64,000 nt of DNA from an uncultured Chloroflexia bacterium (GCA_963734535.1 CAVTHS010000014.1:256001-320000); one strand, 5' to 3'. Numbered from the stretch's first letter, positions 939 to 28,614 are shown. Numbers and translations are program-made. The notes: generated by a model not told the origin, from the sequence alone.

Positions 939-2627
939 ATGCTTCGACGCCTCGGCCGCACCGATATGGTCGCCTTGGCGACCCTCTGTCTGGCCGGGGT
1001 CGGCATTCCGCTCTGGCTTTCCGCTGCTGCCGGAGCCATCGGCCTCCCGGGCAACGACGACTGGGTCTACATGCGGGCCGCCGGCAGCCTGTTCCGCACG
1101 GGCAACGTCGACTTGCCGGGGCACACGGCAGCCTTCGTCGGGCAGCTCGTGATCGTCCAGCCGTTCCTGTGGCTGTCGGGGGGAAACCCCTGGGCGTTCA
1201 CCGCATTCGGGCTGACCGCAACGTTGATTGGTGTTGTGTCCACATACCTCCTCGCCCGACGCTTTGTCCTGACGGTCTCGGCGGTCCTGGTCGTCCTGCT
1301 CGTGGAGGTCTTCCCCGGGTTTGCCCGCGAATCGGCCAGCTTCATGACCGATGTCCCCGCCTACGCGCTCACCATGCTCAGCCTGCTCCTGGGGATCAGG
1401 TGGCTTCAGGGCGATGGCAGAAGAGCGACCTTCGTGGCGGCTCTCGCGGTCGGTGTTCTTGCCTTCAGCATCCGTGAGTTTGCGATCGCGGCGCCCGTTG
1501 CGATCCTGGTCGCCGCCTGGACCCGGAACCGTGCTGACGAGCGAATTTGGCTCGCGGGCCTGTCGGCGATCGTCGCCGTCGGGGTGGCAGCGGTCGTCCG
1601 CATTGCGGCCCTGATGCCAGGCCATGGCGCGGTGGTGACACCCCACCCAGGACAGTTGGGCCTGCTAGGCCCGGCCTTCACGACCCTCGGTGCGGTCCTC
1701 CTGCCCGCGGCCGCGCTCGCGATGGGTCGACGGATCGCGACCTTCAGCCCGGCACAGACCATCCTCGGCGCCGGGCTCGTTTGCCTCTTGGTCGCGCCGC
1801 TATCCGGCACGCTCGTCGGGAACCTCTGGATGCCAAATGGTGCGGCGGGTGATGATCTCCTCACTGGCACCCGGGGTGCCGTGATTGGCGCGGTCGCGTG
1901 GGCGCTCTCGAGCCAGCTCGCCTTCTTCGCGGCAATGCTCGCCGCGGCGCTGGCCATCCGTTGGGGCCACCGCAGCCTCGCTGGAGCCATTTCGTTGTCG
2001 ACAGCCACCGAACGGGCGATCCGCATCGCCCGGAGCCGTGAGGGGCCCATCGTGCTCTTCCTCGGCGCTTACGCTGGAGAACTCGCTGTCTTCACCTCGT
2101 TGAGTTACCCGCTCGATCGATATCTCTACCCGCTGGTCCCGGCAGCCGCAATTCTCCTGCTGCGGGGCAGCGCGCGGCCTTCCTGGTTCGGTCGAAACCA
2201 AGCCATTTCCCACGCTGCCTTCGCGTGGCTCGCCGCCTCGGCGTTCGTCATCGCTAGCAACTCATTCGCCTACGACGCGGCCCGATATCGGGAAGGCGAG
2301 GCGACCGTAGCCCTAGGCTATGACGCGCGCACGATTGACGCTGGTTACGAATGGGTCGGCTATCACGCGACCGGGGTTGGCAACTCGGTTTCTCCCGAGT
2401 ACGGCCTGAAGTGGTACGACGACATGCTGTTGCCATCCCGCCCCTGCGCCGTTCTCTCGAACAGCCCAGTGGACCTCCCCGGTTTCAGACTGATTAGGGT
2501 CAACCGATCGGCGTACCTGCGGTATCTCTTCTTCGGTCCGGCGGAGCCGCTCTACCTCTACGGCTCCCTTGCCGCTGGATGTCCGCCGGCTCCTGCTCCC
2601 GTCGCATGGGCGACGCCGCCGCCCTAG
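939..2627 (+). CDS. Multi-pass membrane glycosyltransferase (GT-C fold, ArnT/PMT-like)
   Basis: Acidic motif GNDDWVY after TM1, SFMTDVP, and C-terminal DRYLYP; many TM helices. Start taken at ATG 939 within ORF 879-2627. Confidence 0.7.
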   Translation: MLRRLGRTDMVALATLCLAGVGIPLWLSAAAGAIGLPGNDDWVYMRAAGSLFRTGNVDLPGHTAAFVGQLVIVQPFLWLSGGNPWAFTAFGLTATLIGVVSTYLLARRFVLTVSAVLVVLLVEVFPGFARESASFMTDVPAYALTMLSLLLGIRWLQGDGRRATFVAALAVGVLAFSIREFAIAAPVAILVAAWTRNRADERIWLAGLSAIVAVGVAAVVRIAALMPGHGAVVTPHPGQLGLLGPAFTTLGAVLLPAAALAMGRRIATFSPAQTILGAGLVCLLVAPLSGTLVGNLWMPNGAAGDDLLTGTRGAVIGAVAWALSSQLAFFAAMLAAALAIRWGHRSLAGAISLSTATERAIRIARSREGPIVLFLGAYAGELAVFTSLSYPLDRYLYPLVPAAAILLLRGSARPSWFGRNQAISHAAFAWLAASAFVIASNSFAYDAARYREGEATVALGYDARTIDAGYEWVGYHATGVGNSVSPEYGLKWYDDMLLPSRPCAVLSNSPVDLPGFRLIRVNRSAYLRYLFFGPAEPLYLYGSLAAGCPPAPAPVAWATPPP

Positions 2628-18577: not shown

Positions 18578-19216
18578 CTAGCTGGGCGAAGGCGCCGGGG
18601 ACGCGCTCGGTTTCGGCGACGCGCTCGGCTTGGGCGTCGCGGACGCGGCGGCGGACGGGCCTGCGGAGGCGCTCGGTGCGGCGGACGCCTGGGGGCTCGC
18701 GGCGGGCGACGCGGATGCGCTCGGCGCCACCGACGCGGCAGGCGCCACCGACGCGACCGGCCTCGGCGTCGGGATCGGCGTCAGGACGCCGCCCTTGCCC
18801 AGCACCACCGCATTCAGGAGGATCAGCACGAAGACGGCGATGACGCCGATCACGAAGATCCCCGACGCACGGTCGTCGACGTGCACCGCGATGTCGGACG
18901 CGGTCTGGGCTCGTGCCGGCGTGGCGGGCCCCCCGCCGCGAGGGCCACGGCCCGGTGCGCGGCTGGTGGCGCTTGCTCGCCCGGCGCGCGCGGTGGTCGA
19001 CGCGACCGCGGCGGCTCCGGTGACCTCTTCGGGCTCCGTGAACGCGGCATCCTCGCCGTCGGTCTCGTCGTCGAGCGCCGAGTCCGCGCCGTTCTCGTCG
19101 TCGAGCGCCGAGTCCGCGCCGTTCTCGTCGTCCGGCTGGGCGCCGTCGTCGAGCGCCTCGTCGTCGGGCGTCCCCTCCGGGAGCGCGCCGTGCGCGCGGT
19201 CGTCCGGCTCGGTCAT
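18578..19216 (-). CDS. Hypothetical single-pass membrane protein with an acidic N-terminus and a Pro/Ser/Ala-rich tail
   Basis: D/E-rich N-terminus with a 10-aa duplication (DDENGADSAL), one TM helix (IFVIGVIAVFVLILLNAVVL) and SASP repeats. Confidence 0.7.
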   Translation of the reverse strand: MTEPDDRAHGALPEGTPDDEALDDGAQPDDENGADSALDDENGADSALDDETDGEDAAFTEPEEVTGAAAVASTTARAGRASATSRAPGRGPRGGGPATPARAQTASDIAVHVDDRASGIFVIGVIAVFVLILLNAVVLGKGGVLTPIPTPRPVASVAPAASVAPSASASPAASPQASAAPSASAGPSAAASATPKPSASPKPSASPAPSPS

Positions 19217-19421: not shown

Positions 19422-21470
19422 TCAAGCCTCGCGCAGTGGCCGGCTGGCGAGCCCGGCAAGCCCGGCCGCCAGCGTGATCACGCCGAAGACCACGAGCACC
19501 GGCCCCACCCCAGCGGCGTCGCCCAGGAGGCCGCTGGCCGCCATCGCGAACGTCATGGCCCCGAAGACCGCGGAGAACCGGAAGCCGATCACCCGCCCGA
19601 TCATGTCGCCGGGTGTCCGTTCCTGGAAGAGCGTCTGGGTCGGGATGATGAAGACCATGTTCGAGATGCCCATCGCGAACGCCAGGCCAAGCGCGAGCGG
19701 CAGGTTGTTGGTCAGGCCCAGGCCGACCACCGCGAGGCCGTACACGGCGTAGCCGCCGATCACCATCCGGCCCTTCGCGATCCGCGAACCCAGCAGGCCG
19801 ATCACGAACCCGCCGAGCAGGTTGCCGACGCCGATCGCCGTCTCGATGAAGGCGTAGGCGGCGGTCCAGTCGAGCGACCCGAGTCGCAGGACCACCTTCG
19901 CGTAGAGCGGCGTGAGCGCGATCGTCGCGCCGACCGTCAGCTGCCCCGCGACCGCCTGCAGCGTGTTGGCGAAGAGGACGGGCTCGCGACGAAGGAATCG
20001 CCAGCCGGCGGACAGGTCGGCGCGGATCCCGGCCAGCCCGGGGACGGGGTCGGCCGACCCAGCCGAGCGGACCACCGGCGGGATCACCACCACCATCACC
20101 AGGAGGGCCGACGCGACATACGACACGGAGTCGAGCCAGAACGCCAGCGGCAGCGCGCTCCCGAGGAACGCCACGAACAGCCCCGCGAAGGGATAGCCGA
20201 TGACGTCGGCCAGGGTCTCGTTGAGCCATGTCGCGGCGTTCGCCGACACGAGCTCATCCTCGTGCACGACCCTCGGCAGGACGGCCGTCCGGGCCGGCCG
20301 GAAGAAGATCGAGACGGTCGTCAGGAGGAAGACCAGCGGGTAGGCCAGCACGACGCTCACGCCGACGCCCGCGGGAATGAGCACGACGATCCCCGCGCGA
20401 ATGAGGTCGCTCGCGATCAGGACGTGCTTCTGGTTCCAGCGGTCGACCAGGACGCCCGCGAGCGGTCCGAAGAGGAGGTTCGGCAGCGTCGCCGCAACGA
20501 ACGTCAGGGCGCCCGCGATCGCCGAGTTCGTGGTCCCGTAGACAAGCGCCGCCAGCGCCACCTGGTGGATCCGGTCGCCGAAGAGGCTGATCACCTGCCC
20601 CGTCTGCAGCGCGGAGAAGGATCCGTTGACTGCGAGCCGAACGTACGGGTGATGGCGCGCCCGGATCGCGACCGTCCGGAGGACGCCGGGCAGGAGCGGT
20701 GCCGTGACGCCGCCCGACGACATCGGCGCCGGTGTTGCCAGCCCCGCGCCCGAGCCGCCCAGGATCATCGGCCGCTCCAGCGCAGCGATGCCAACCAGGC
20801 TCGCCGCGAGGCCGGTCCCTGCGCGCACGCCGCCCGTCTGCTCGGAGCCGGGCGATCCGGCCAGGACCACCGGCTGGCTCGGGTCGGCGCTTCGGAGCGT
20901 GCGGCCGTCCGACCCGACCTCGTCCGCGTGACGCACCATGCCCGCGAACAGGAAGAACCCGAGTCCGACGTCGAGGATCACGTCGCCGATCGAGAGAACA
21001 TTGCGCAGGAACGGCAGCGGAACCGGGATCACGTCGCCCAGCGGGCCCGCCGACCACATGAAGGCGGCGTCCAGGCTCGCCGGCAGGATCACGTGGATGG
21101 GCGAGAGGACGTCCGCCCGGCCGAACCCGGCCGCGACGAGGCTCGGTTCCCAGATTGGCATGAAGCCGCCGTTCACCAGGATCGCCGTGGCGTTGAGCCC
21201 GATCCCGACGAGCGCCAGGCTCATGCCCGGCCTCGCCCGGTTCGCCCACAGCCCGATGGCAAGGACGCCATAGGCGGCGGCAAGAAGCGGAACCCGCAGC
21301 GTCTCGGCGATGGCGACGTCCCGGCCCAGCGCCGCCTCGGTACCCAGGCGAAGGGCGAGCGCGCCGAAGATCACGAGCGGCCAGCGGAGGCGGATCGAGA
21401 TGAGGTTGTCGATGCGGCCGCCGACCGCGAACCCCGCGACCAGCCCGATGATCAGCCCCGCGATCAGCAC
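19422..21470 (-). CDS. DUF5317 domain fused to an MFS transporter
   Basis: N-terminal about 180 aa: GGRIDNL..IRLRW, GLNATAILVNGGFMPI, PLGDVIP and VLSIGDV (DUF5317). C-terminal MFS: GQVISLFGDRIH, AGVLVDRWNQK..LIASDLIR and TLFQERTP..MIGRV. Confidence 0.85.
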   Translation of the reverse strand: MLIAGLIIGLVAGFAVGGRIDNLISIRLRWPLVIFGALALRLGTEAALGRDVAIAETLRVPLLAAAYGVLAIGLWANRARPGMSLALVGIGLNATAILVNGGFMPIWEPSLVAAGFGRADVLSPIHVILPASLDAAFMWSAGPLGDVIPVPLPFLRNVLSIGDVILDVGLGFFLFAGMVRHADEVGSDGRTLRSADPSQPVVLAGSPGSEQTGGVRAGTGLAASLVGIAALERPMILGGSGAGLATPAPMSSGGVTAPLLPGVLRTVAIRARHHPYVRLAVNGSFSALQTGQVISLFGDRIHQVALAALVYGTTNSAIAGALTFVAATLPNLLFGPLAGVLVDRWNQKHVLIASDLIRAGIVVLIPAGVGVSVVLAYPLVFLLTTVSIFFRPARTAVLPRVVHEDELVSANAATWLNETLADVIGYPFAGLFVAFLGSALPLAFWLDSVSYVASALLVMVVVIPPVVRSAGSADPVPGLAGIRADLSAGWRFLRREPVLFANTLQAVAGQLTVGATIALTPLYAKVVLRLGSLDWTAAYAFIETAIGVGNLLGGFVIGLLGSRIAKGRMVIGGYAVYGLAVVGLGLTNNLPLALGLAFAMGISNMVFIIPTQTLFQERTPGDMIGRVIGFRFSAVFGAMTFAMAASGLLGDAAGVGPVLVVFGVITLAAGLAGLASRPLREA

Positions 21471-22885
21471 GGCTGGGCGGGGGTCAGGAAGCGTCCGTGG
21501 GTGGGCCGCCCGGCGCAGCCGGCGGAATCATCCGCGCCGCGGCCTGGGCGAGGAGCGGGACAGGTCGCGACTCGGTCGGGCGCCCGGGCGTCTGCCACGT
21601 CCTTGGCCCACGACGTGCGCACGAACGCGTCGACCATCACCGGATCGAACTGGACGCCCGCGTACTTGCGCAGCTCCGCGAGTGCCTGCTCGCGCGACAA
21701 CGGCCGCATCCGATACGGGCGCGCCGACGTCATCGCCTCGAACGCGTCGGCCACGTGGAGCACGCGCGCCAGCTTGGGGATCTCGTCGCCCATGAGCCGA
21801 TCCGGGTACCCGGAGCCGTTGTACCACTCGTGGTGGTGCCGGATGATCGGCAGCTCCGGGGCCAGCTTCCCGACGTGGGCAATGATGTTGGCCCCGATCA
21901 CCGGGTGCCGGTTCATGAGCGCCCGCTCGTCCCGCGTCAGCTTGTCCTGCTTGAGCAGCACGCTGTCCGGCACCCCGATCTTGCCGATGTCGTGCAGCAG
22001 CCCGCCCCACTCGAGGGCCTGGATCTCGTCGTCCTTCAACCGCATCACGTGCCCCATGTCCACCGAGATCAGCTGCACGCGCTCGCTGTGACCGGACGTG
22101 AAGGTATCCCTCGCATCGACTGCCTGCGCGAGTGCCCCGATGGTCTGCGTGAACATCTCCTGCACTTCGACGACTTGACGAAGTGCGACTCGCATGATGT
22201 AGATGGGCAGGACGCGAAGAAGAGAGTTGCCCACCATCCGACCTCGAGAGGCGATAGATCTGCGTCATCAGCCAAGCCAGGGGAGCGAGTGCAACCCTGT
22301 CGCGAAGAACGTCGGTCGATCCCCGAGCAAGACCGTTCTGGTCGATTGCTGCGTTCGAAGGGCGACCGTTATTGATGTGAAGCTCACGTTGAGCGCAAAG
22401 AACACAGACGCAGCCCGGCGAGCGTCGATACGAAGTCGCCGGCCGGAGCGGTTGATCCCGACGCCCGAGTTCCGTCAGGACGATCTGACGCCCGAACGTC
22501 CCGCTGCGATCGCAGGAACAACAAGTCCCGCGTGGTTGGCAAGGGTTCCGTACCACGGGACCCGACCCGAGTCTCCCGATACTCCTTGTCCCGATGGCGC
22601 GACGATCGCAGCCTGCGGCCTGGTCCTCCCAGACTCATCGCGGCGACGATTGGCGCGATCGACGTGTTGATGAGCGTAGCCCCGCGCCATCGGACTGGCA
22701 GAGCCGAGGCTAGGAGGGTCAGCCCCGTCCAGAAGACGATCCCGGCGAGGACGTCGATTGTCTCGGAGCCAAACAGGTCCAGCCGAATCTGCTATCTGAC
22801 AGGAATCACGACGACTCGTGACGACTAGCACAAGGTGCGCCGACCGTCACGAGCTCGCAATGTAGATGCTGAGGCTCTTAGGCAT
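21464..22885 (-). CDS. Membrane-sensor HD-GYP cyclic-dinucleotide phosphodiesterase; the N-terminal multi-TM sensor is frameshifted
   Basis: Intact GHSERV, LLHDIGKIG, HHHEWYNGSGYP and ADAFEAMTSARPYR. Upstream TM fragments are MPKSLSIYIA (ATG 22885, GAAGGGA RBS), FWTGLTLLASALPVR, LINTSIAPIVAAMSLGGP and VPWYGTLANHA. Confidence 0.85.
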
Positions 22886-22963
22886 CCGATCCCTTCAGGC
22901 GACCGTCGGCTGTCCTTGGACTGTAGACGTACCCGGACGAGCCGGAAGGTGAGACAGAAGTAC

Positions 22964-23053
22964 CTAGAACCCCTTCAGTGATGCTCCCCCAGCAATAACG
23001 GCCGCGCCGATAGGCCGACGGTACCGCGAGGAGGGCGCAGTCCGAGTCTTCAT
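22964..23053 (-). CDS. 29-aa micro-ORF, putative signalling-peptide precursor MKTRTAPSSRYRRPIGAAVIAGGASLKGF
   Basis: ATG at 23053 to TAG at 22964, read by hand. Basic N-terminus and C-terminal AAVIAGGASLKGF. The middle is probably distorted by compensating indels, since an alternate frame gives LLAVPSA. Confidence 0.7.
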   Translation of the reverse strand: MKTRTAPSSRYRRPIGAAVIAGGASLKGF

Positions 23054-23083
23054 CACTGGAGACCTAGCTCCCGTCCCCTGCCG

Positions 23084-23116
23084 TCAGAAGCCCTTGGAAC
23101 CGAACTCGGGACCCAT
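23084..23116 (-). CDS. 10-aa micro-ORF MGPEFGSKGF
   Basis: GGAGGG Shine-Dalgarno 6 nt before ATG 23116, TGA at 23084. Shares the C-terminal KGF-stop with the adjacent micro-ORF. Confidence 0.55.
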   Translation of the reverse strand: MGPEFGSKGF

Positions 23117-23267
23117 CGTGTGCCCTCCAATGGGTTTCCGTGCCCCCGCGAAATCACGAAAACCGACCTAACAGATTGGTCGGTCGGTTGCACTAGTCGC
23201 TCCACCTCCCCCCTAAGTGCCCATTTCGGGAGGAGGTATCAGCGCGTCCGCTTGTTCACTTTGCTTC

Positions 23268-23327
23268 CTAGTACCGCGGTACTAGTCGGCGAACCGGACT
23301 TTAGGCTGCTGCGCGAGCAACGGTCAA
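23268..23327 (-). promoter_or_regulatory. Sigma70-like promoter with a downstream perfect 18-bp palindrome (candidate operator) for the peptide operon
   Basis: Minus strand TTGACC-N18-TAAAGT; CTAGTACCGCGGTACTAG at 23268-23285. Confidence 0.5.
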
Positions 23328-23344
23328 TACCGAACCCTCCCTAT

Positions 23345-26300
23345 CTAGCCCAAGAGATCCTCAAGGTGAGGCGGATCAAGGCCGAGGTCCCGCTGACCCA
23401 GTGAGTAGTGTCCGTACTGTTCGGCCGCGGCAGCGTAGGCGCCGACCAAGGTATAGAGCCGTATCACGGTCTTCTCGACCTCGTCGAGTTGCGGGTCAAT
23501 CTCAATGGCCCGCTGAGCGAGGCGCATCGCACGATCGATCTGACCAGTGTCTGCATCGTGCGTCGACCGCGCGCTCCACGATCTCGAGGTATCTCGCGTG
23601 CATCGATGCTCTCGGATCGGGGCCGCCCATTCTTCGTAGGTGAAGTCGAGGGCGAATCGTCCCGAGTAGATCTGTGACACGCGATCGGCCTGGGCCGGGG
23701 TCGCGAGAGCGCCGATCGACGCTGCAATACGTCGATACTCATGGCTTCTGCTCGTAACTAGGTCGGAGTCTAGCCACAGCACATCGGGGTCGTGATGCAG
23801 ATACCCGGGGCTCAAGTCCTCCGACGTAGTCGGGCTCGAATACGCGACGGAGGAAGTAGACGGTCTGGTGCAGTGAGTTGGCGGCCTGCTCCGGATCCTG
23901 ATCCGGCCACAGCGCGTCAAGTACCTGGTCCCGCGTTGCCGACATCTTTGGCTGAGCTAACAGGAAGCAAAGGAGCGCAAGAGCCTTCCGGCGGATCGTC
24001 GTCCCCGGTATCTCCATCGAACCAACCCAGATAACCAATCCGGCCGAGATCGTCGACATAGACCAAGTCGGCAACTCGACGGGCGAGCGACTTACCGAAG
24101 TCTGGATGACGGAGTTGTCCCTTGGACTCCTTCGAAGCCAGCCGGAGTAGGCGAACGTCCTCTTTGGTCCCGATTACCTCCAGGAGGCGGGCGGCTTGCC
24201 ATCGCTCTCGGCCTCCTGGAGCTGCAACGAGAATGCGAATTGGCGATTCGCCAGCGACGCGGGCGTGACTCAGCCTCTGCAGCGGACGACGTCGATCGCA
24301 GCGTCGGACAGGTCGGCGATCCTCCGGAGCACTGCCTCTGCCCGAACGCTCAAGAGCGCGCGATCGCGGAGCCCGATGGCGCTGACGATCGCCGACGCTT
24401 CGTCCGGCGTGGCAGATAGTCCACGCAACAGCGATGCGTCGATAAGGCGACCCAGCGCGCTGCTTGCCGCCGGGCTAACGTTTCGAGCGCTAGTCGAGAC
24501 GCGGGATCAACCGTTCCGAATGCGAGAACTCGCGAATTCAGTGCGCCAGCAGACGCTGGACGTGGAAGGCGGGGTATCCCGTCAGGACTCCGCAGGCATT
24601 CGGCGGATATGTGAGCCCGCGTCGCCTCGCCCACCTCACCAGGTCTTCCAGCCGCGAGAGCTGTCTCCGGTGAGAAGCTGGAAGCACTCCAGGGAGGCAT
24701 CTGGAGCACCCAGAAGGTCGGCCTCCGCAGCAGTCTGAGAGGCGCGCGTCCGGATCGTCGTAGGCTCCAATGATCTCGGCGCCCTCGACGAGGCTCTCAA
24801 ATCGCGTCCCGGCTCTCGCTGCCTCGAGCGAGTGTCACGTCCAGCTTCGCCTCCGCCTCGACCCAATCGCCGTCGTGGGCAAGGGCCCAAGCCTACAGTG
24901 TCTGCACCGACGATATTTCCGTTCCCGCGGAGGAGCGGCTAAGCGCATCCACGGCGCCAGCCGCCCGCGTCGCGGGTTGCGTGCACGTCGCCTCGAGCAC
25001 GCAACATCCACGCGGCATTCAAGAGCGAGATGCCTTGGTAGTGCCAGTAGCCCCGCCGCTCGAATCGGGTTGCGAGGTCCGCGATAGGCATGGATCGACA
25101 CCGCCGAGGTCTCCGTCGACGGGAATGATTCGAGCCAAGTCATGGCATCCGCGAGGGTGGCGATCGCTCGCCGGTTCTTCCGACAGAGATCGCGCCGCCC
25201 AGCGAACGGCGCGTTCGTAGGTCGCCTACCCCATAAGACGCGTTCATCATTGACCCCATCGCGATAGCAACGGTCATGCGACCGGTCGCTTCCTCCGACG
25301 ACACGATCGATGGCACCTGCGGCAGCCGCGGCTGCTCCGGCCGGATCACCGGCACGGAGTCGTCCTGATGCCACTATCACGTCGTGCCAGGCGCCGAGGG
25401 TGGCGGGGTCGAGATGGGAGGCGAGCTGCTCGGCGTCCTTGTAGGCGCCGGAGCCGAGGATGACGGGGACTGCCGCCGAGAGGACTCGGACGGCGTCGTC
25501 GGCCAGGTCGGCGGCGGCGAAGTGGTACGCCGCGACCGACCACGAGGCAGGCTCCGCGGCGCGCGCGATGCGGGCGTGGATCTGGCGGACCGCGATCGCC
25601 CCGACGGCGTCGTGCAGCCGGCCCTCCAGGAACGTCCGGACGAGCGGGTGGAAGAGGCGTCCGGCCTGCCCGGTTCGGCCGCGTCGCGACAGGAGACCCG
25701 CACCCTCGGCGGCGTCGAGGAAGCCGCGAGCGGCCTCCGGGGTGACCTCGGCGGCCGCGGACGCGAGCTCCGGCGTGACGACGGCCAGCAGGCAGCTCCG
25801 CTCGACGAAATCCTGGGCGGCACGTGGCATGCGCCCGACGACCTCCTCGGCAAGGTAGTCGTGCAGGTCGCCCTGCCGACCGGACAGGCCGCGGATGACG
25901 GTCCGAACCTCGTCGCGCGGCCGCCCGCGGACCACGGACTCGACGAGCCGCAGCGTGGCCGCCCATCCCTCGGTGGTGCGGGCGAGGTCGTCGAGGAGGT
26001 CGCGCTCGAGCGGGTCGTGGTAGGTGTCCCGGAAGAGGCGCTCCGTCTCGTCGCGGTCGAATCGCAGGTCGTCGGTGCCGATCTCGGCCGCTTCGCCGAT
26101 TGCGCGGAGGCGGGCGAGGGGGAGCGTTGGCCGCGTCCGCGAGGCGATGACGACCGCCAGCCGGTCGGGACCGCGGACCACGAGCTCACGGACGATCTCG
26201 CGGATCTCCGGGACGTCGTCCACCTGCTGGTAGTCGTCGAGGACCAGCGCCGTGCCGACCACCGCCCAGGCACGAAGCTCCGCCAGGAGTGTCCTGACGA

Positions 26301-26832
26301 TCGCGCTCCGGTTGTCGAGGGTCGCCGCGAGCTCGCGCAGGAGGCCTGCCGTGTTCGGGGCGAACTCCGGATCGATCTCGCGACCGGCGGCGACGATGTG
26401 ATGGATGAACACGGCCCAGTCGCGGTCGTGCTCGTCCAGGCGATACCAGAGCGTGCGCACGCGGGTACGCCGGCTCCAGTCCGCGAGGAGCGTGGTCTTC
26501 CCATAGCCCGGCTCGGCGATGACGAGGGCGAGCCGGGACCGCGTCTTCGCGTGCAGCCAGTCGATCAGCCGGTCGCGCCGGAGCGTCTCCTCCGGGAGCA
26601 TGGGCGGCTGGATCTTGCCGATCTGGACCGGATAGCCGAAGACTTCCACGTCGTCCTGCTGGGCAGCGCTCGGAGTCCGATGCGAGACGGGACCCGGCCC
26701 AACCGGGACGAGGCGTGTCGGGACCGTCTGCGGATCACGGGCGAGCGGGTGTGCCGACCACCGACCGCCCACCTGGGCGTGGGCGGGGGTCAGGGAAGCC
26801 GGGCCGGGAGCCGGGGAAGCCATCGCGGCCAT
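23345..26832 (-). CDS. Large MalT-like STAND ATPase / TPR / wHTH-BTAD (SARP-type) transcriptional regulator, 3' half frameshifted
   Basis: KIQPP..LRRDRL, Walker A AEPGYGKTT, LVLDDYQ, LRFDRDE, TEGWAA, DYLAEEV and FHPLVR. The C-terminus reads RKALALLCFLL..ATRDQVLDALWPD..ANSLHQTVYFLRR, with BTAD motifs YSGRFALDFTYEEWA and AAAAEQYGHY. Confidence 0.8.
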
Positions 26833-26926: not shown

Positions 26927-27133
26927 TCAGGCGCCCTCGTACTCGAAGCCGATCTTGAGATCGACGCGGTACTCGACGATCTCCCCGTTCTCGACCGCGG
27001 CGGTCGACTTGACGACCTCGACCGTCCGGATGTTCCGGACGGTCCGAGAGGCGGTCGCCACGGCCTGCCGCGCGGCGTCGCTCCACGATTTCGGGCTCGT
27101 CCCGACCATCTCCCGGATGATGATCACGCCCAT
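26927..27133 (-). CDS. Dodecin family flavin-binding protein
   Basis: 68 aa with EMVGTSPKSWSDAA, ASRTVRNI and EYRVDLKIGF. Confidence 0.9.
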   Translation of the reverse strand: MGVIIIREMVGTSPKSWSDAARQAVATASRTVRNIRTVEVVKSTAAVENGEIVEYRVDLKIGFEYEGA

Positions 27134-27255: not shown

Positions 27256-28614
27256 TTACGGGGCCGCGCCCGCGTAGCGCTCGCCGGCATAGCTGACGAA
27301 GCGCGTCTGGCTCTTCTTGAACCAGAGGTCAACCTCGCCGGTGGGGCCGTTGCGGTGCTTGGCAAGCCGGAGCTTGACGACCTCGCCGTCCGCATCCTGG
27401 TCCTCGCCCCGCTCCTTCTCGCGCCACAGGAACACGACCAGGTCTGCGTCCTGCTCGATTGCGCCCGACTCGCGGAGGTCGGAGAGCCGGGGCTCCTTCG
27501 ACTCGCGCATCTCGGGCTGGCGCGACAGCTGCGAGAGCGCGACGACGGGAACGCGAAGCTCGCGGGCGAGCGCCTTCAACCCGCGGCTGATCTCCGAGAC
27601 TTCCTGGACGCGGTTCGAATCGCGCGCGGTGGATGACGCCTGCATGAGCTGGAGGTAGTCCACGATCACGAGGTCGAGGCCGACCTCCGCCTGCAGCCGC
27701 CGGGCCTTCGTGCGCAGCTCCATGGTGCTGATGTTCGGCGTGTCGTCGATGTAGATCGGCGCTTCGGACAGGCCGGTCATGGCCTTGGAGACGCCCACGA
27801 AGTCCATCTCGTCGAGGAAGCCCGTGCGCAGACGCTGGCTGTCGATGTTCCCGACCGAGCTGAGAAGCCGGAGAACGAGCTGCTCCTTGCTCATCTCCAG
27901 GCTGAAGATCCCCACGCTCTTGCGGGGCGTGTTGCTGATCGCGGCGAACTCCGCGATGTTCAGGGCGAGGCTGGTCTTGCCCACGGATGGGCGAGCGGCG
28001 ATCACGACGAGGTCCGACGGCTGCAGGCCGGTGGTGAGCGTGTCGAGGTCCGCGAAGCCCGTCCGGATGCCGCTGATCTCGCCGCGGTGGGTGTGCAGGT
28101 AGTCGAGCCGGTCGAACGCCTCGTGGAGGAGCGTCCGGAGCGGGCTGAACCCGGCGGCAACGCGGCGCTCCGAGACGGCGAAGAGCTCCGACTCGGCGCG
28201 GTCGATCGCTTCCTGGACTTCCGGCCCGTCCTCGTAGCCGATCCCGGCGATCTTTCCGGCCGCCGCGATCAGGTTTCGCAGCACGGACTTGCGTTCGACG
28301 ATCCGGGCGTACTGGGCGGCGAAGACGGCGGTGGGGGTCTGCTCGGAGAGCGACGAGAGGTACGCACGGCCGCCGATCTGCTCGAGGTCCCCGGCTCGCT
28401 CGAGCGCCTCGGCGACCGTGATGATGTCGATCGGCTCACGGCGCTCCCAGAGCTCCACCATCGACGCGTAGATGCGGCCGTGGGCCTGGCGGTAGAAATC
28501 GTCCGGGTGGACGATGTCGGCGACCTCGATGATCGCGTCGCGATCGATGAGGAGCGCTCCGAGGACGGACTGCTCGGCTTCGATGCTCTGGGGTGGAAGG
28601 CGGTCGAGGGACAC
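27256..28614 (-). CDS. dnaB: Replicative DNA helicase
   Basis: PPQSIEAEQSVLG, AARPSVGKT, IVDYLQLM, ALSQLSR, DLRESGAIEQDAD and AKHRNGPTG. Confidence 0.97.
   Translation of the reverse strand: MSLDRLPPQSIEAEQSVLGALLIDRDAIIEVADIVHPDDFYRQAHGRIYASMVELWERREPIDIITVAEALERAGDLEQIGGRAYLSSLSEQTPTAVFAAQYARIVERKSVLRNLIAAAGKIAGIGYEDGPEVQEAIDRAESELFAVSERRVAAGFSPLRTLLHEAFDRLDYLHTHRGEISGIRTGFADLDTLTTGLQPSDLVVIAARPSVGKTSLALNIAEFAAISNTPRKSVGIFSLEMSKEQLVLRLLSSVGNIDSQRLRTGFLDEMDFVGVSKAMTGLSEAPIYIDDTPNISTMELRTKARRLQAEVGLDLVIVDYLQLMQASSTARDSNRVQEVSEISRGLKALARELRVPVVALSQLSRQPEMRESKEPRLSDLRESGAIEQDADLVVFLWREKERGEDQDADGEVVKLRLAKHRNGPTGEVDLWFKKSQTRFVSYAGERYAGAAP

Follow-up and report, generated by a model that had tools for sequence, protein, structure and literature searches.

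A conserved, apparently undescribed module of a class II c-di-GMP riboswitch, two micro-proteins, a MASE9-HD-GYP phosphodiesterase and DUF5317 in uncultured Chloroflexota

Small membrane proteins that modulate larger sensors and transporters, such as MgrB with PhoQ and AcrZ with AcrB, and class II riboswitches (Rfam RF01786) that precede genes of cyclic di-GMP (c-di-GMP) turnover are among the described systems closest to the locus analyzed here. The locus occupies positions 26832-19422, minus strand, of a 64,000-nucleotide (nt) stretch of DNA from an uncultured Chloroflexia bacterium (GCA_963734535.1, CAVTHS010000014.1:256001-320000), referred to as the window, which is part of a 3.2-Mb metagenome-assembled genome (MAG) of 14 contigs that is 90% complete, 7% contaminated and ~71% G+C. 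In it, a class II c-di-GMP riboswitch is followed by two very short open reading frames (micro-ORFs), a phosphodiesterase gene with a probable MASE9 membrane domain and an HD-GYP catalytic domain, and a gene in which the membrane domain DUF5317 is fused to a transporter of the major facilitator superfamily (MFS). This module is conserved and apparently undescribed.

Known RF01786 switches before c-di-GMP genes resemble the one found here in having a full-length match above the cut-off, a terminator-type expression platform and an operon tied to c-di-GMP turnover; the present switch differs in its occurrence in Chloroflexota (class Limnocylindria by record titles), in a very short helix P1 and in the two micro-ORFs between switch and enzyme gene. 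With proteins of the MgrB and AcrZ type, the 29-amino-acid (aa) product of the second micro-ORF would share the form of a single ~30-residue hydrophobic helix encoded beside, or co-regulated with, a polytopic partner; there is no homology to those proteins, and the partnership proposed here is drawn from gene linkage only.

In the parts of the report on the C. difficile CD1980.2 family that were used here (PMC13724677, 2026), small membrane-associated proteins of 58 aa, encoded by stand-alone genes behind class I c-di-GMP riboswitches and repressed by c-di-GMP through premature termination, are described as promoting sporulation and as having no homologues outside C. difficile. Compared by description only, the present locus differs in encoding products of 10 and 29 aa, in a class II switch that is predicted to be an ON switch, and in an operon shared with MASE9-HD-GYP and DUF5317. 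Galperin and Chou (bioRxiv 10.1101/2021.11.05.467447) described MASE9 (PF20972) as an eight-segment membrane domain, inferred to bind its ligand within the membrane, and noted that experiments had covered one such protein only and had shown little; T. maritima TM1467 and S. venezuelae HdgA have an N-terminal polytopic PF20972 domain followed by HD-GYP, an order of domains that the protein encoded here probably shares. The searched passages of that preprint contain 0 mentions each of DUF5317 and riboswitches, and relative to them the micro-protein and DUF5317 appear to be new as constant neighbors of MASE9-HD-GYP.

Full-text searching, outside which most subscription journals lie, returned no paper that mentions DUF5317, none with both 'Limnocylindria' and 'c-di-GMP' or both 'c-di-GMP-II' and 'Chloroflexi', no relevant paper on MASE9 besides the preprint among the two that use the name, and no published description of the module. 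The locus offers a concrete and testable candidate partner or ligand for MASE9, a first functional context for DUF5317, an extension of class II riboswitches to Limnocylindria, an abundant uncultured lineage of soil and freshwater, and, by comparison with the parts of PMC13724677 used here, a second instance, unrelated to the C. difficile family of 2026, of a c-di-GMP riboswitch that controls micro-proteins.

Leader RNA and micro-ORFs

Reading of ORFs and Pfam domains in the window gave, from 26832 to 19422 on the minus strand, a regulator gene, two micro-ORFs, the HD-GYP gene and DUF5317-MFS, in that order. Features downstream of the regulator gene were as follows.

23298-23327, minus strand: promoter-like site, TTGACC, 18 nt, TAAAGT (promoter scan, 1 found against a shuffle mean of 0.2; both hexamers conserved in a 17-locus alignment)
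23268-23285, minus strand: 5′-proximal hairpin, CTAGTAC, CGCG, GTACTAG (sequence reading; conserved in the 17-locus alignment)
23173-23258, minus strand: c-di-GMP-II riboswitch aptamer, RF01786 (Rfam, 61.4 bits against a gathering threshold of 53.5, E 3.2e-12, model positions 1-84 of 84)
23155-23188, minus strand: terminator-like hairpin, ACCGACC ... GGTCGGT then TTTTCGTG (sequence reading and Rfam alignment)
23084-23116, minus strand: micro-ORF1, 10 codons (MGPEFGSKGF) and TGA, with Shine-Dalgarno GGAGG 7 nt upstream
22964-23053, minus strand: micro-ORF2, 29 codons from ATG and TAG, basic at the N-terminus, hydrophobic in the core and ending in the tail AGGASLKGF
21464-22885, minus strand: MASE9-HD-GYP phosphodiesterase, membrane half (22885 to ~22240) frameshifted, catalytic half (22237-21464) open
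19422-21470, minus strand: DUF5317 (residues 26-174; Pfam PF17248, 2e-22) and an MFS domain, likely of DHA3 type (residues ~284-676; MFS_3, 2.5e-25), 682 aa, intact

The entire arrangement was repeated in 17 of 17 loci of the genus and was also seen class-wide; it is real and far beyond chance. Within the genus, the order dnaB, dodecin, regulator, riboswitch, ORF1, ORF2, HD-GYP, DUF5317-MFS, a 212-aa protein and a PIMT-like gene held as far as each stretch extends. For the class-wide scan, a sensor-domain alignment was run against 185,579 species genomes, giving 425 relatives of which 80 were retained; the titles of these 80 are almost all Chloroflexota, Limnocylindria or Limnocylindrales.

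The original prediction for this stretch had named the co-oriented gene order, two micro-ORFs ending in KGF-stop and a DUF5317-MFS gene overlapping the HD-GYP stop. All of these were recovered, the micro-ORFs at 23116-23084 and 23053-22964 and the overlap, from a GTG start, measuring 7 nt. It had also proposed a regulator with a MalT-like ATPase, tetratricopeptide repeats (TPR), a winged helix-turn-helix (wHTH) and BTAD, and a sensor of several membrane segments fused to an intact HD-GYP domain. The ATPase, wHTH, BTAD and HD-GYP domains stood, but in the window neither protein is one open gene, the regulator losing its frame below ~25430 and the sensor breaking after 12 codons. Conservation of the micro-ORFs in homologous loci and linkage of DUF5317 to HD-GYP in other genomes, on which the original prediction had staked its case, were both found, as detailed below; the riboswitch at 23258-23173 is an element that it had not contained.

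The aptamer, which lies 56 nt upstream of ORF1, matched the whole RF01786 model above its gathering threshold and was the sole Rfam match above cut-off in the 64-kb window as well as the sole RF01786 match above cut-off in the genome. RF01786 exceeded the cut-off in 17 of 17 genus loci, at the same place (59.5-68.7 bits), and in 9 of 17 family and class loci from the rest of the family and the sister family; further scores were 56.9 bits in L079, above the cut-off, and 53.4, 51.2 and 38.8 bits in L072, L073 and L068, below it. The aptamer core motif was present in 69 of 69 class-wide loci with enough upstream sequence. Helix P1 of the window aptamer is very short, with 3 standard pairs at its inner end, and in the Rfam alignment its 3′ strand is contained in the 5′ arm of the terminator-like hairpin, a motif found in 69 of 71 class-wide leaders; bound aptamer and hairpin are therefore expected to be mutually exclusive. 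Because each would exclude the other, we infer that c-di-GMP prevents termination, which would make this an ON switch.

Two further structures may shape the leader. In the palindrome at 23268-23285, variation among loci consisted of G-T positions (G-U in RNA) and one two-sided change (L026), which favors an RNA hairpin over a DNA operator. A hairpin ACCCAT ... ATGGGT (23140-23111, minus strand) holds the ORF1 Shine-Dalgarno site in its loop and the start codon in its 3′ arm; in the sister family the sequence at this position is different and still pairs (CAGAAG ... CTTCTG). CACGGAAACC, just upstream, can also pair with the T-run that follows the terminator-like hairpin. Control may have a second layer, at translation.

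In soil metatranscriptome contigs, which come from relatives and whose depth is a poor measure, word depth was 330.7 in the bin of the riboswitch and ORF1 (23092-23232) and 10.9-12.6 in three downstream bins (22669-23091), and one contig of 443 nt spans 22691-23128, bridging ORF1, ORF2 and the HD-GYP start. These contigs give a weak hint of abundant leader RNA and of co-transcription.

RF01786-like and related RNAs were also seen at other sites. Contig C3 of the same genome carries two sub-threshold RF01786-like matches on the minus strand, at 335031-335116 (41.2 bits) and 330900-330984 (38.1 bits), both lacking the core motif; the gene that follows each encodes a protein whose N-terminus resembles a signal peptide. 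They may represent a variant class or have matched by chance. In L074, of the sister family, a second locus has HD-GYP, MFS and DUF5317 as three separate genes, with a c-di-GMP-I-GGC riboswitch (RF03167, 61.1 bits against 59) directly after DUF5317 (2265-2345, minus strand).

ORF1 was 10 codons long in 48 of 52 loci and was preceded by a Shine-Dalgarno-like site in all 52. Its products follow the pattern [VM]-x-P-[ED]-x-x-x-K-G-[WF], in which Pro3 uses all four codons, and its entropy at the three codon positions (0.88/0.85/1.02) shows a weak wobble bias. ORF2 encoded 29 aa in 58 of 63 loci and began with ATG in 59 of 63; per-position variability was 0.83, 0.51 and 1.50 bits at codon positions 1, 2 and 3, and the consensus was MKxRLLRLLAALSAVAAxALAGGASL[KR]GF. 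Residues G22, G23 and S25 were invariant (58/58), and G22, G23, A24 and S25 each use all four synonymous codons. Among class-wide loci with enough upstream sequence, an ORF1-like frame was present in 62 of 69 and an ORF2-like frame in 63 of 69, with median spacings of 77 nt from the ORF2 stop to the HD-GYP start and 24.5 nt from the ORF1 stop to the ORF2 start. The fixed lengths, Shine-Dalgarno sites, wobble-dominated variation and free choice of synonymous codons at invariant residues indicate that both micro-ORFs are genes under protein-level selection. An operon's strongest conservation can lie in genes of 10 and 29 aa, a size that gene callers pass over.

In the window copy of ORF2, a -1/+1 indel pair, visible in the 17-locus alignment, garbles ~10 residues of the hydrophobic core. 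Neither window micro-ORF encodes Cys, and Cys is not among the four commonest residues at any ORF2 position. A regex search of the same genome found no ORF2-like peptide besides the copy at the locus.

That the micro-ORFs are regulatory upstream ORFs, whose translation, perhaps with stalling at K-G-aromatic-stop, tunes HD-GYP while the peptides have no function of their own, is most improbable. ORF2 is strongly selected along its whole length, its hydrophobic core keeping its character as the sequence changes; the spacings given above reveal no overlap or obvious coupling; and the versions in other families described below keep the build while the tail differs. Such a role would suit the position of the micro-ORFs in the leader between riboswitch and first long gene, the shared three-residue motif directly before both stops, the placing of the ORF1 start within a conserved hairpin with the Shine-Dalgarno site in its loop, and the weak wobble bias of ORF1.

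Phosphodiesterase, DUF5317 and the conserved core

The catalytic part of the phosphodiesterase matched HD_5 (PF13487) in Pfam at 3.2e-38 over profile positions 3-168 of 170, and HDIGK and GSGYP are readable in the translation, so that the HD_5 domain and the HD and GYP motifs that define an HD-GYP phosphodiesterase are all present. The frame that opens at the conserved start, 22885, is lost after 12 codons, and pieces of the membrane domain lie in three different frames. In relatives, the N-terminal 215 residues matched MASE9 (PF20972) in 8 of 12 proteins (best E 3.1e-09), and the sensor domain of L066 lies near MASE9 clusters in the ESM Atlas with a feature score of 0.94. By these matches, the sensor domain is probably MASE9.

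The downstream protein matched DUF5317 (PF17248) at 80.3 bits against a cut-off of 25, over profile positions 2-150 of 151. Its second half scored 89.4 bits against 27 with PF05977 and 206.8 bits (5.9e-61) with TIGR00900, for which the subfamily cut-off is 319.6; by these matches it is certainly an MFS protein and likely of the DHA3 subfamily. An AlphaFold2 model of the DUF5317 part (predicted local distance difference test score 93.3, predicted template modeling score 0.86) combines several membrane helices with a beta-rich part and a final helix. N77, G89, N93, G102, M104, P105, D146, S160, G162, D163 and G169 are invariant, and in the model D146, S160, G162 and D163 adjoin the beta-rich domain. 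The positive-inside rule, applied by eye, and the fusion to MFS would place the beta-rich part with D146, S160 and D163 on the outer side. A Foldseek search of the model against the PDB gave 0 matches at E <=0.001, the best being a rhodopsin at E 4.9 and a template modeling score of 0.28. A known intramembrane or signal peptidase was considered as an identity for DUF5317 and rejected, no likeness in fold or sequence to a peptidase family having been found.

DUF5317 was present in 91 of 301 sampled genomes of the phylum (including one unpublished genome, G266) and was also matched in Thermus and Thermotoga control genomes. In this sample, frames of MFS-fusion size (~610-750 aa) occurred in the family of the window and its sister family, and DUF5317 elsewhere was mostly stand-alone; the longer DUF5317 proteins listed were mostly DUF5317-MFS fusions of the same class. 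Two proteins, P0073 and P0106, carry HD_5/HD and DUF5317 on one chain (one also with MFS); they are either true fusions or read-through calls across abutting genes and were set aside.

Linkage to HD-GYP extends beyond the fusion. All DUF5317-MFS loci examined in the two fusion-carrying families had HD-GYP, and in 1.5-kb flanks of 30 stand-alone DUF5317 loci, HD-GYP was found in 15, MFS in 5 and a wHTH match in 6. In three loci from three other Chloroflexota families (L160, L161, L162), the gene directly upstream of the stand-alone DUF5317 encodes a MASE9-like HD-GYP protein, and in 3 of 3 that gene is preceded by an ORF of 31-32 aa built like ORF2: basic at the N-terminus, hydrophobic in the core, with a small-residue patch and, after it, a basic and an aromatic residue. 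In L161 this micro-ORF occurs as two identical copies in tandem; both have a strong Shine-Dalgarno site and lie behind a T-rich terminator and an RF01786 match that, at 52.7 bits, falls just below cut-off. In L160 and L162, whose upstream stretches are shorter, no riboswitch was found. Because the set recurs in these three families, the core that travels together is, as far as gene neighborhoods indicate, the micro-protein, MASE9-HD-GYP and DUF5317, and Limnocylindria seem to have added the MFS fusion, ORF1 and the regulator.

A likely feedback operon and a proposed role for the micro-protein

A riboswitch-controlled operon that includes a c-di-GMP phosphodiesterase is the secure part of the functional reading, and because of it a feedback loop is likely. 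From a promoter directly after the regulator gene, transcription would produce a leader with the 5′ hairpin, the c-di-GMP-II aptamer and the terminator-like hairpin; high c-di-GMP would allow read-through into the genes for the 10-aa peptide, the 29-aa peptide, MASE9-HD-GYP and DUF5317-MFS; and the phosphodiesterase, from what is known of the HD-GYP family, would then lower c-di-GMP and close a negative feedback. The 29-aa micro-protein would act as an in-membrane partner or ligand of MASE9 and/or DUF5317. For this reading as a whole, a c-di-GMP-induced feedback operon whose 29-aa product works in the membrane with MASE9 and/or DUF5317 and is not an agr-like diffusible pheromone, the probability is put at roughly one half.

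We take the ORF2 product to be a micro-protein that crosses the membrane once; its N-terminus is basic, and a ~20-residue hydrophobic stretch, an invariant AGGAS patch and a basic and aromatic end follow. The product looks like a helix with an invariant small-residue face of the kind used in helix packing. These helix-like features, together with two polytopic neighbors, one of which is thought to sense a ligand within the membrane, favor a role in the membrane. The precedent of small membrane proteins behind c-di-GMP riboswitches in C. difficile, as the parts of PMC13724677 used here describe them, strengthens the proposal by analogy. Co-folding of the MASE9 domain, the DUF5317 domain and ORF2, run without controls, gave a score of 0.01 against a mark of 0.32, which weighs neither for nor against binding.

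Peptide quorum sensing was the function first suggested for the locus. The original prediction saw an agr-like circuit with the BTAD regulator in control of the operon, and neither half of that claim was supported. Locus scans with Pfam found no agr component, the peptides contain no Cys and the output is HD-GYP in place of a kinase; the control element that can be demonstrated is the c-di-GMP-II riboswitch, and L161 has no regulator within ~1.5 kb upstream. The locus does share with agr and with Phr/SHP-type (RRNPP) systems a very small precursor that has a hydrophobic, signal-like part and ends in a short conserved C-terminal tail, a membrane exporter gene, and a helical-repeat regulator nearby. 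Membership in agr was rejected (no AgrB, Cys-bearing AgrD, AgrC kinase or AgrA LytTR in the locus scans), as was membership in RRNPP: the regulator, a STAND ATPase whose DNA-binding end is of SARP type, matches MalT-like ATPase, Trans_reg_C and BTAD, no Opp importer is present in the locus, and the tail is constant between species.

An exported peptide signal of another kind would require ORF2 to be cut by signal peptidase, or by DUF5317 at the outer face, with release of a K-G-F peptide of 5-8 residues. The MFS would export this peptide or the leaderless ORF1 peptide, and it would be sensed by MASE9, tuning the phosphodiesterase, or, after re-entry, by the helical part of the STAND regulator, so that cell density is coupled to c-di-GMP breakdown. 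Several features fit: ORF2 has a signal peptide's n, h and c regions and carries its small residues at A19-L20-A21 and G22-G23-A24, the peptides of other families have A-G-A followed by five residues, ORF1 repeats the K-G-[FW] end without a leader, a DHA3 exporter-type MFS is fused in the same operon, the invariant D146, S160, G162 and D163 of DUF5317 lie beside the beta-rich domain that the positive-inside rule by eye puts outside, and DUF5317 and HD-GYP are linked across the phylum. Such a signal is nevertheless considered unlikely. The tail is near-invariant class-wide (G22, G23 and S25 in 58/58), unlike known strain-specific peptide pheromones; Pfam and NCBIfam found no protease family, Opp-type importer or RRNPP receptor among the locus proteins; Foldseek matched no peptidase structure to the DUF5317 model; a chain of 29 aa falls short of what co-translational targeting needs; and most other families lack MFS beside DUF5317 (MFS in 5 of 30 loci).

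A bolder proposal, regarded as quite unlikely, is that the 29-aa micro-protein, MASE9-HD-GYP and DUF5317 form an unrecognized membrane signaling unit in which DUF5317, with two invariant Asp and one Ser placed at the outer face, is a new membrane peptidase or peptide-binding protein acting on the AGGAS-x-K-G-F tail, and the tail, once released or presented, is the long-sought in-membrane or extracellular ligand of the orphan MASE9. If this were so, riboswitch, peptide cue and c-di-GMP breakdown would make one self-limiting circuit, and dispersal control in a major uncultured soil lineage would be coupled to a peptide.

Several points weigh against the in-membrane feedback operon. ORF2 fits a Sec-type signal peptide equally well, with A-L-A and G-G-A before the last 5-8 residues, which would favor export, and ORF1 encodes a 10-aa peptide without a membrane segment, which a membrane-partner model leaves unexplained. 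Pfam gave no MASE9 match in the genus copies L017 and L029, and the window copy is frameshifted. The hairpin at 23155-23188, with its long loop and short T run, was not flagged by a simple terminator scan, and it shows almost no covariation across loci, as its 5′ arm is fixed by the aptamer. Ligand binding, termination and translation at the locus are predicted from sequence alone. Finally, two genes of the window are not open, and a truly decayed locus would be compatible with the contig data described next.

Regulator, broken frames and neighboring genes

Upstream of the module lies the regulator gene.

23345-26832, minus strand: STAND-type regulator, with a MalT-like ATPase, a helical/TPR middle and a wHTH-BTAD (SARP-like) C-terminus (Pfam on window pieces)

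Its N-terminal ATPase part is an ORF at 26832-24835 with AAA_22/AAA_16 matches, and wHTH (Trans_reg_C, 1.5e-07) and BTAD (7.2e-06) pieces were found at 24074-23345. Below ~25430 the window copy is fragmented, and the homologous reading hops among all three frames. The gene is intact in six genus relatives (1147-1189 aa). In L022 the protein matched BTAD (2.8e-14) and Trans_reg_C (4.8e-06) in Pfam and, under the cut-off, MalT (1.3e-52) in NCBIfam; it has the OmpR-type wHTH followed by BTAD, with a STAND ATPase, of the SARP/AfsR-like class. The order of domains, ATPase first and SARP last, is presumably the reverse of that in AfsR. TPR in the regulator proteins were matched by TPR_14 only, at 4.3e-04, under the cut-off. 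Of the class-wide loci whose sequence extends a full 5 kb upstream, only L084 lacked the regulator ahead of the module. In the rest of the family and the sister family, identity of the ATPase falls to ~33% and the order regulator, HD-GYP, DUF5317-MFS is retained. L029 shows one alignment gap of ~1.65 kb against the window inside the regulator (1653 gap letters, bin 24433-24184), which may be an insertion.

The breaks in the regulator and sensor lie in one sharply bounded block, 25430-22185, which spans the middle and DNA-binding parts of the regulator and MASE9 and diverges faster than the surrounding ATPase, HD-GYP catalytic and DUF5317-MFS parts. Against three close relatives (L013, L015, L029), identity in the block was 50-85% with 1-8 gap openings per 250 nt, and in the flanks mostly 76-94%; nearly all flanking bins were free of gaps for L013 and L015, and none had more than 1 for L029. 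Between L085 and L082, both records without 'MFD' in the title, identity was 48-77% in the block against mostly 79-90% in the flanks, and the SARP and MASE9 coding bins contained no frameshifting gaps. Riboswitch and micro-ORFs form a conserved island inside the block. The block was also considered as pherotype-like hypervariability and not counted as such: sensor parts commonly evolve faster than catalytic ones, and the peptides do not co-vary.

Alignment of the window to L085, a MAG locus for which title and contig name only suggest a short-read origin, showed ~40 gaps of non-multiple-of-three length between 25400 and 22151 and none in flanking coding bins. In short-read Logan contigs of run X1, the stretch 22130-23129 had 36 gaps and 42 mismatches, against 0-1 gaps at 21400-22159 and 23100-23319; three other runs gave contigs with 10-16 gaps each inside the block and 0-1 outside. 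All 39 loci whose titles lack 'MFD' had an intact MASE9-HD-GYP ORF; of the 34 titled 'MFD', 25 did, and 7 of the 9 broken copies belong to the genus of the window. Judged by their titles, 'MFD' records are presumed to be long-read assemblies. Because the short-read contigs and the 39 of 39 loci show intact genes, the breaks in the window are most likely consensus or assembly errors, the consensus being unreliable where co-occurring strains differ.

The other possibility, that the module is decaying in this genome, with the regulator and the phosphodiesterase's sensor half as true pseudogenes, appears very unlikely. The ~40 non-triplet gaps, the scatter of ORFs over three frames and the broken copies in several genus relatives, with 7 of the 9 known class-wide falling in this genus, are what decay would produce. 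Yet X1 and the three other runs have their gaps at 22130-23129, with 0-1 beyond that stretch, each of the 39 loci lacking 'MFD' is unbroken, the edges of the block match where close relatives diverge, exactly where a mixed-strain consensus would fail, and decay would not have spared the riboswitch and both micro-ORF frames. For scans of long-read MAGs this is a caution, as broken frames of the kind seen here are probably not biology.

Among neighboring genes, a 212-aa protein (18578-19216, minus strand) without a Pfam match, acidic in its N-terminal part, rich in Ala/Pro/Ser in its tail and carrying one hydrophobic segment, lies downstream of DUF5317-MFS in most genus loci and could belong to the operon. 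A dodecin gene (68 aa; PF07311, 1.7e-24; 26927-27133, minus strand) stands between dnaB and the regulator, at the same place across the genus and in other genera of the family. The dnaB gene of relatives L017, L020 and L022 contains an intein-like insert of ~1.2 kb between query residues ~383 and 381; dnaB of the window (27256-28614) is uninterrupted.

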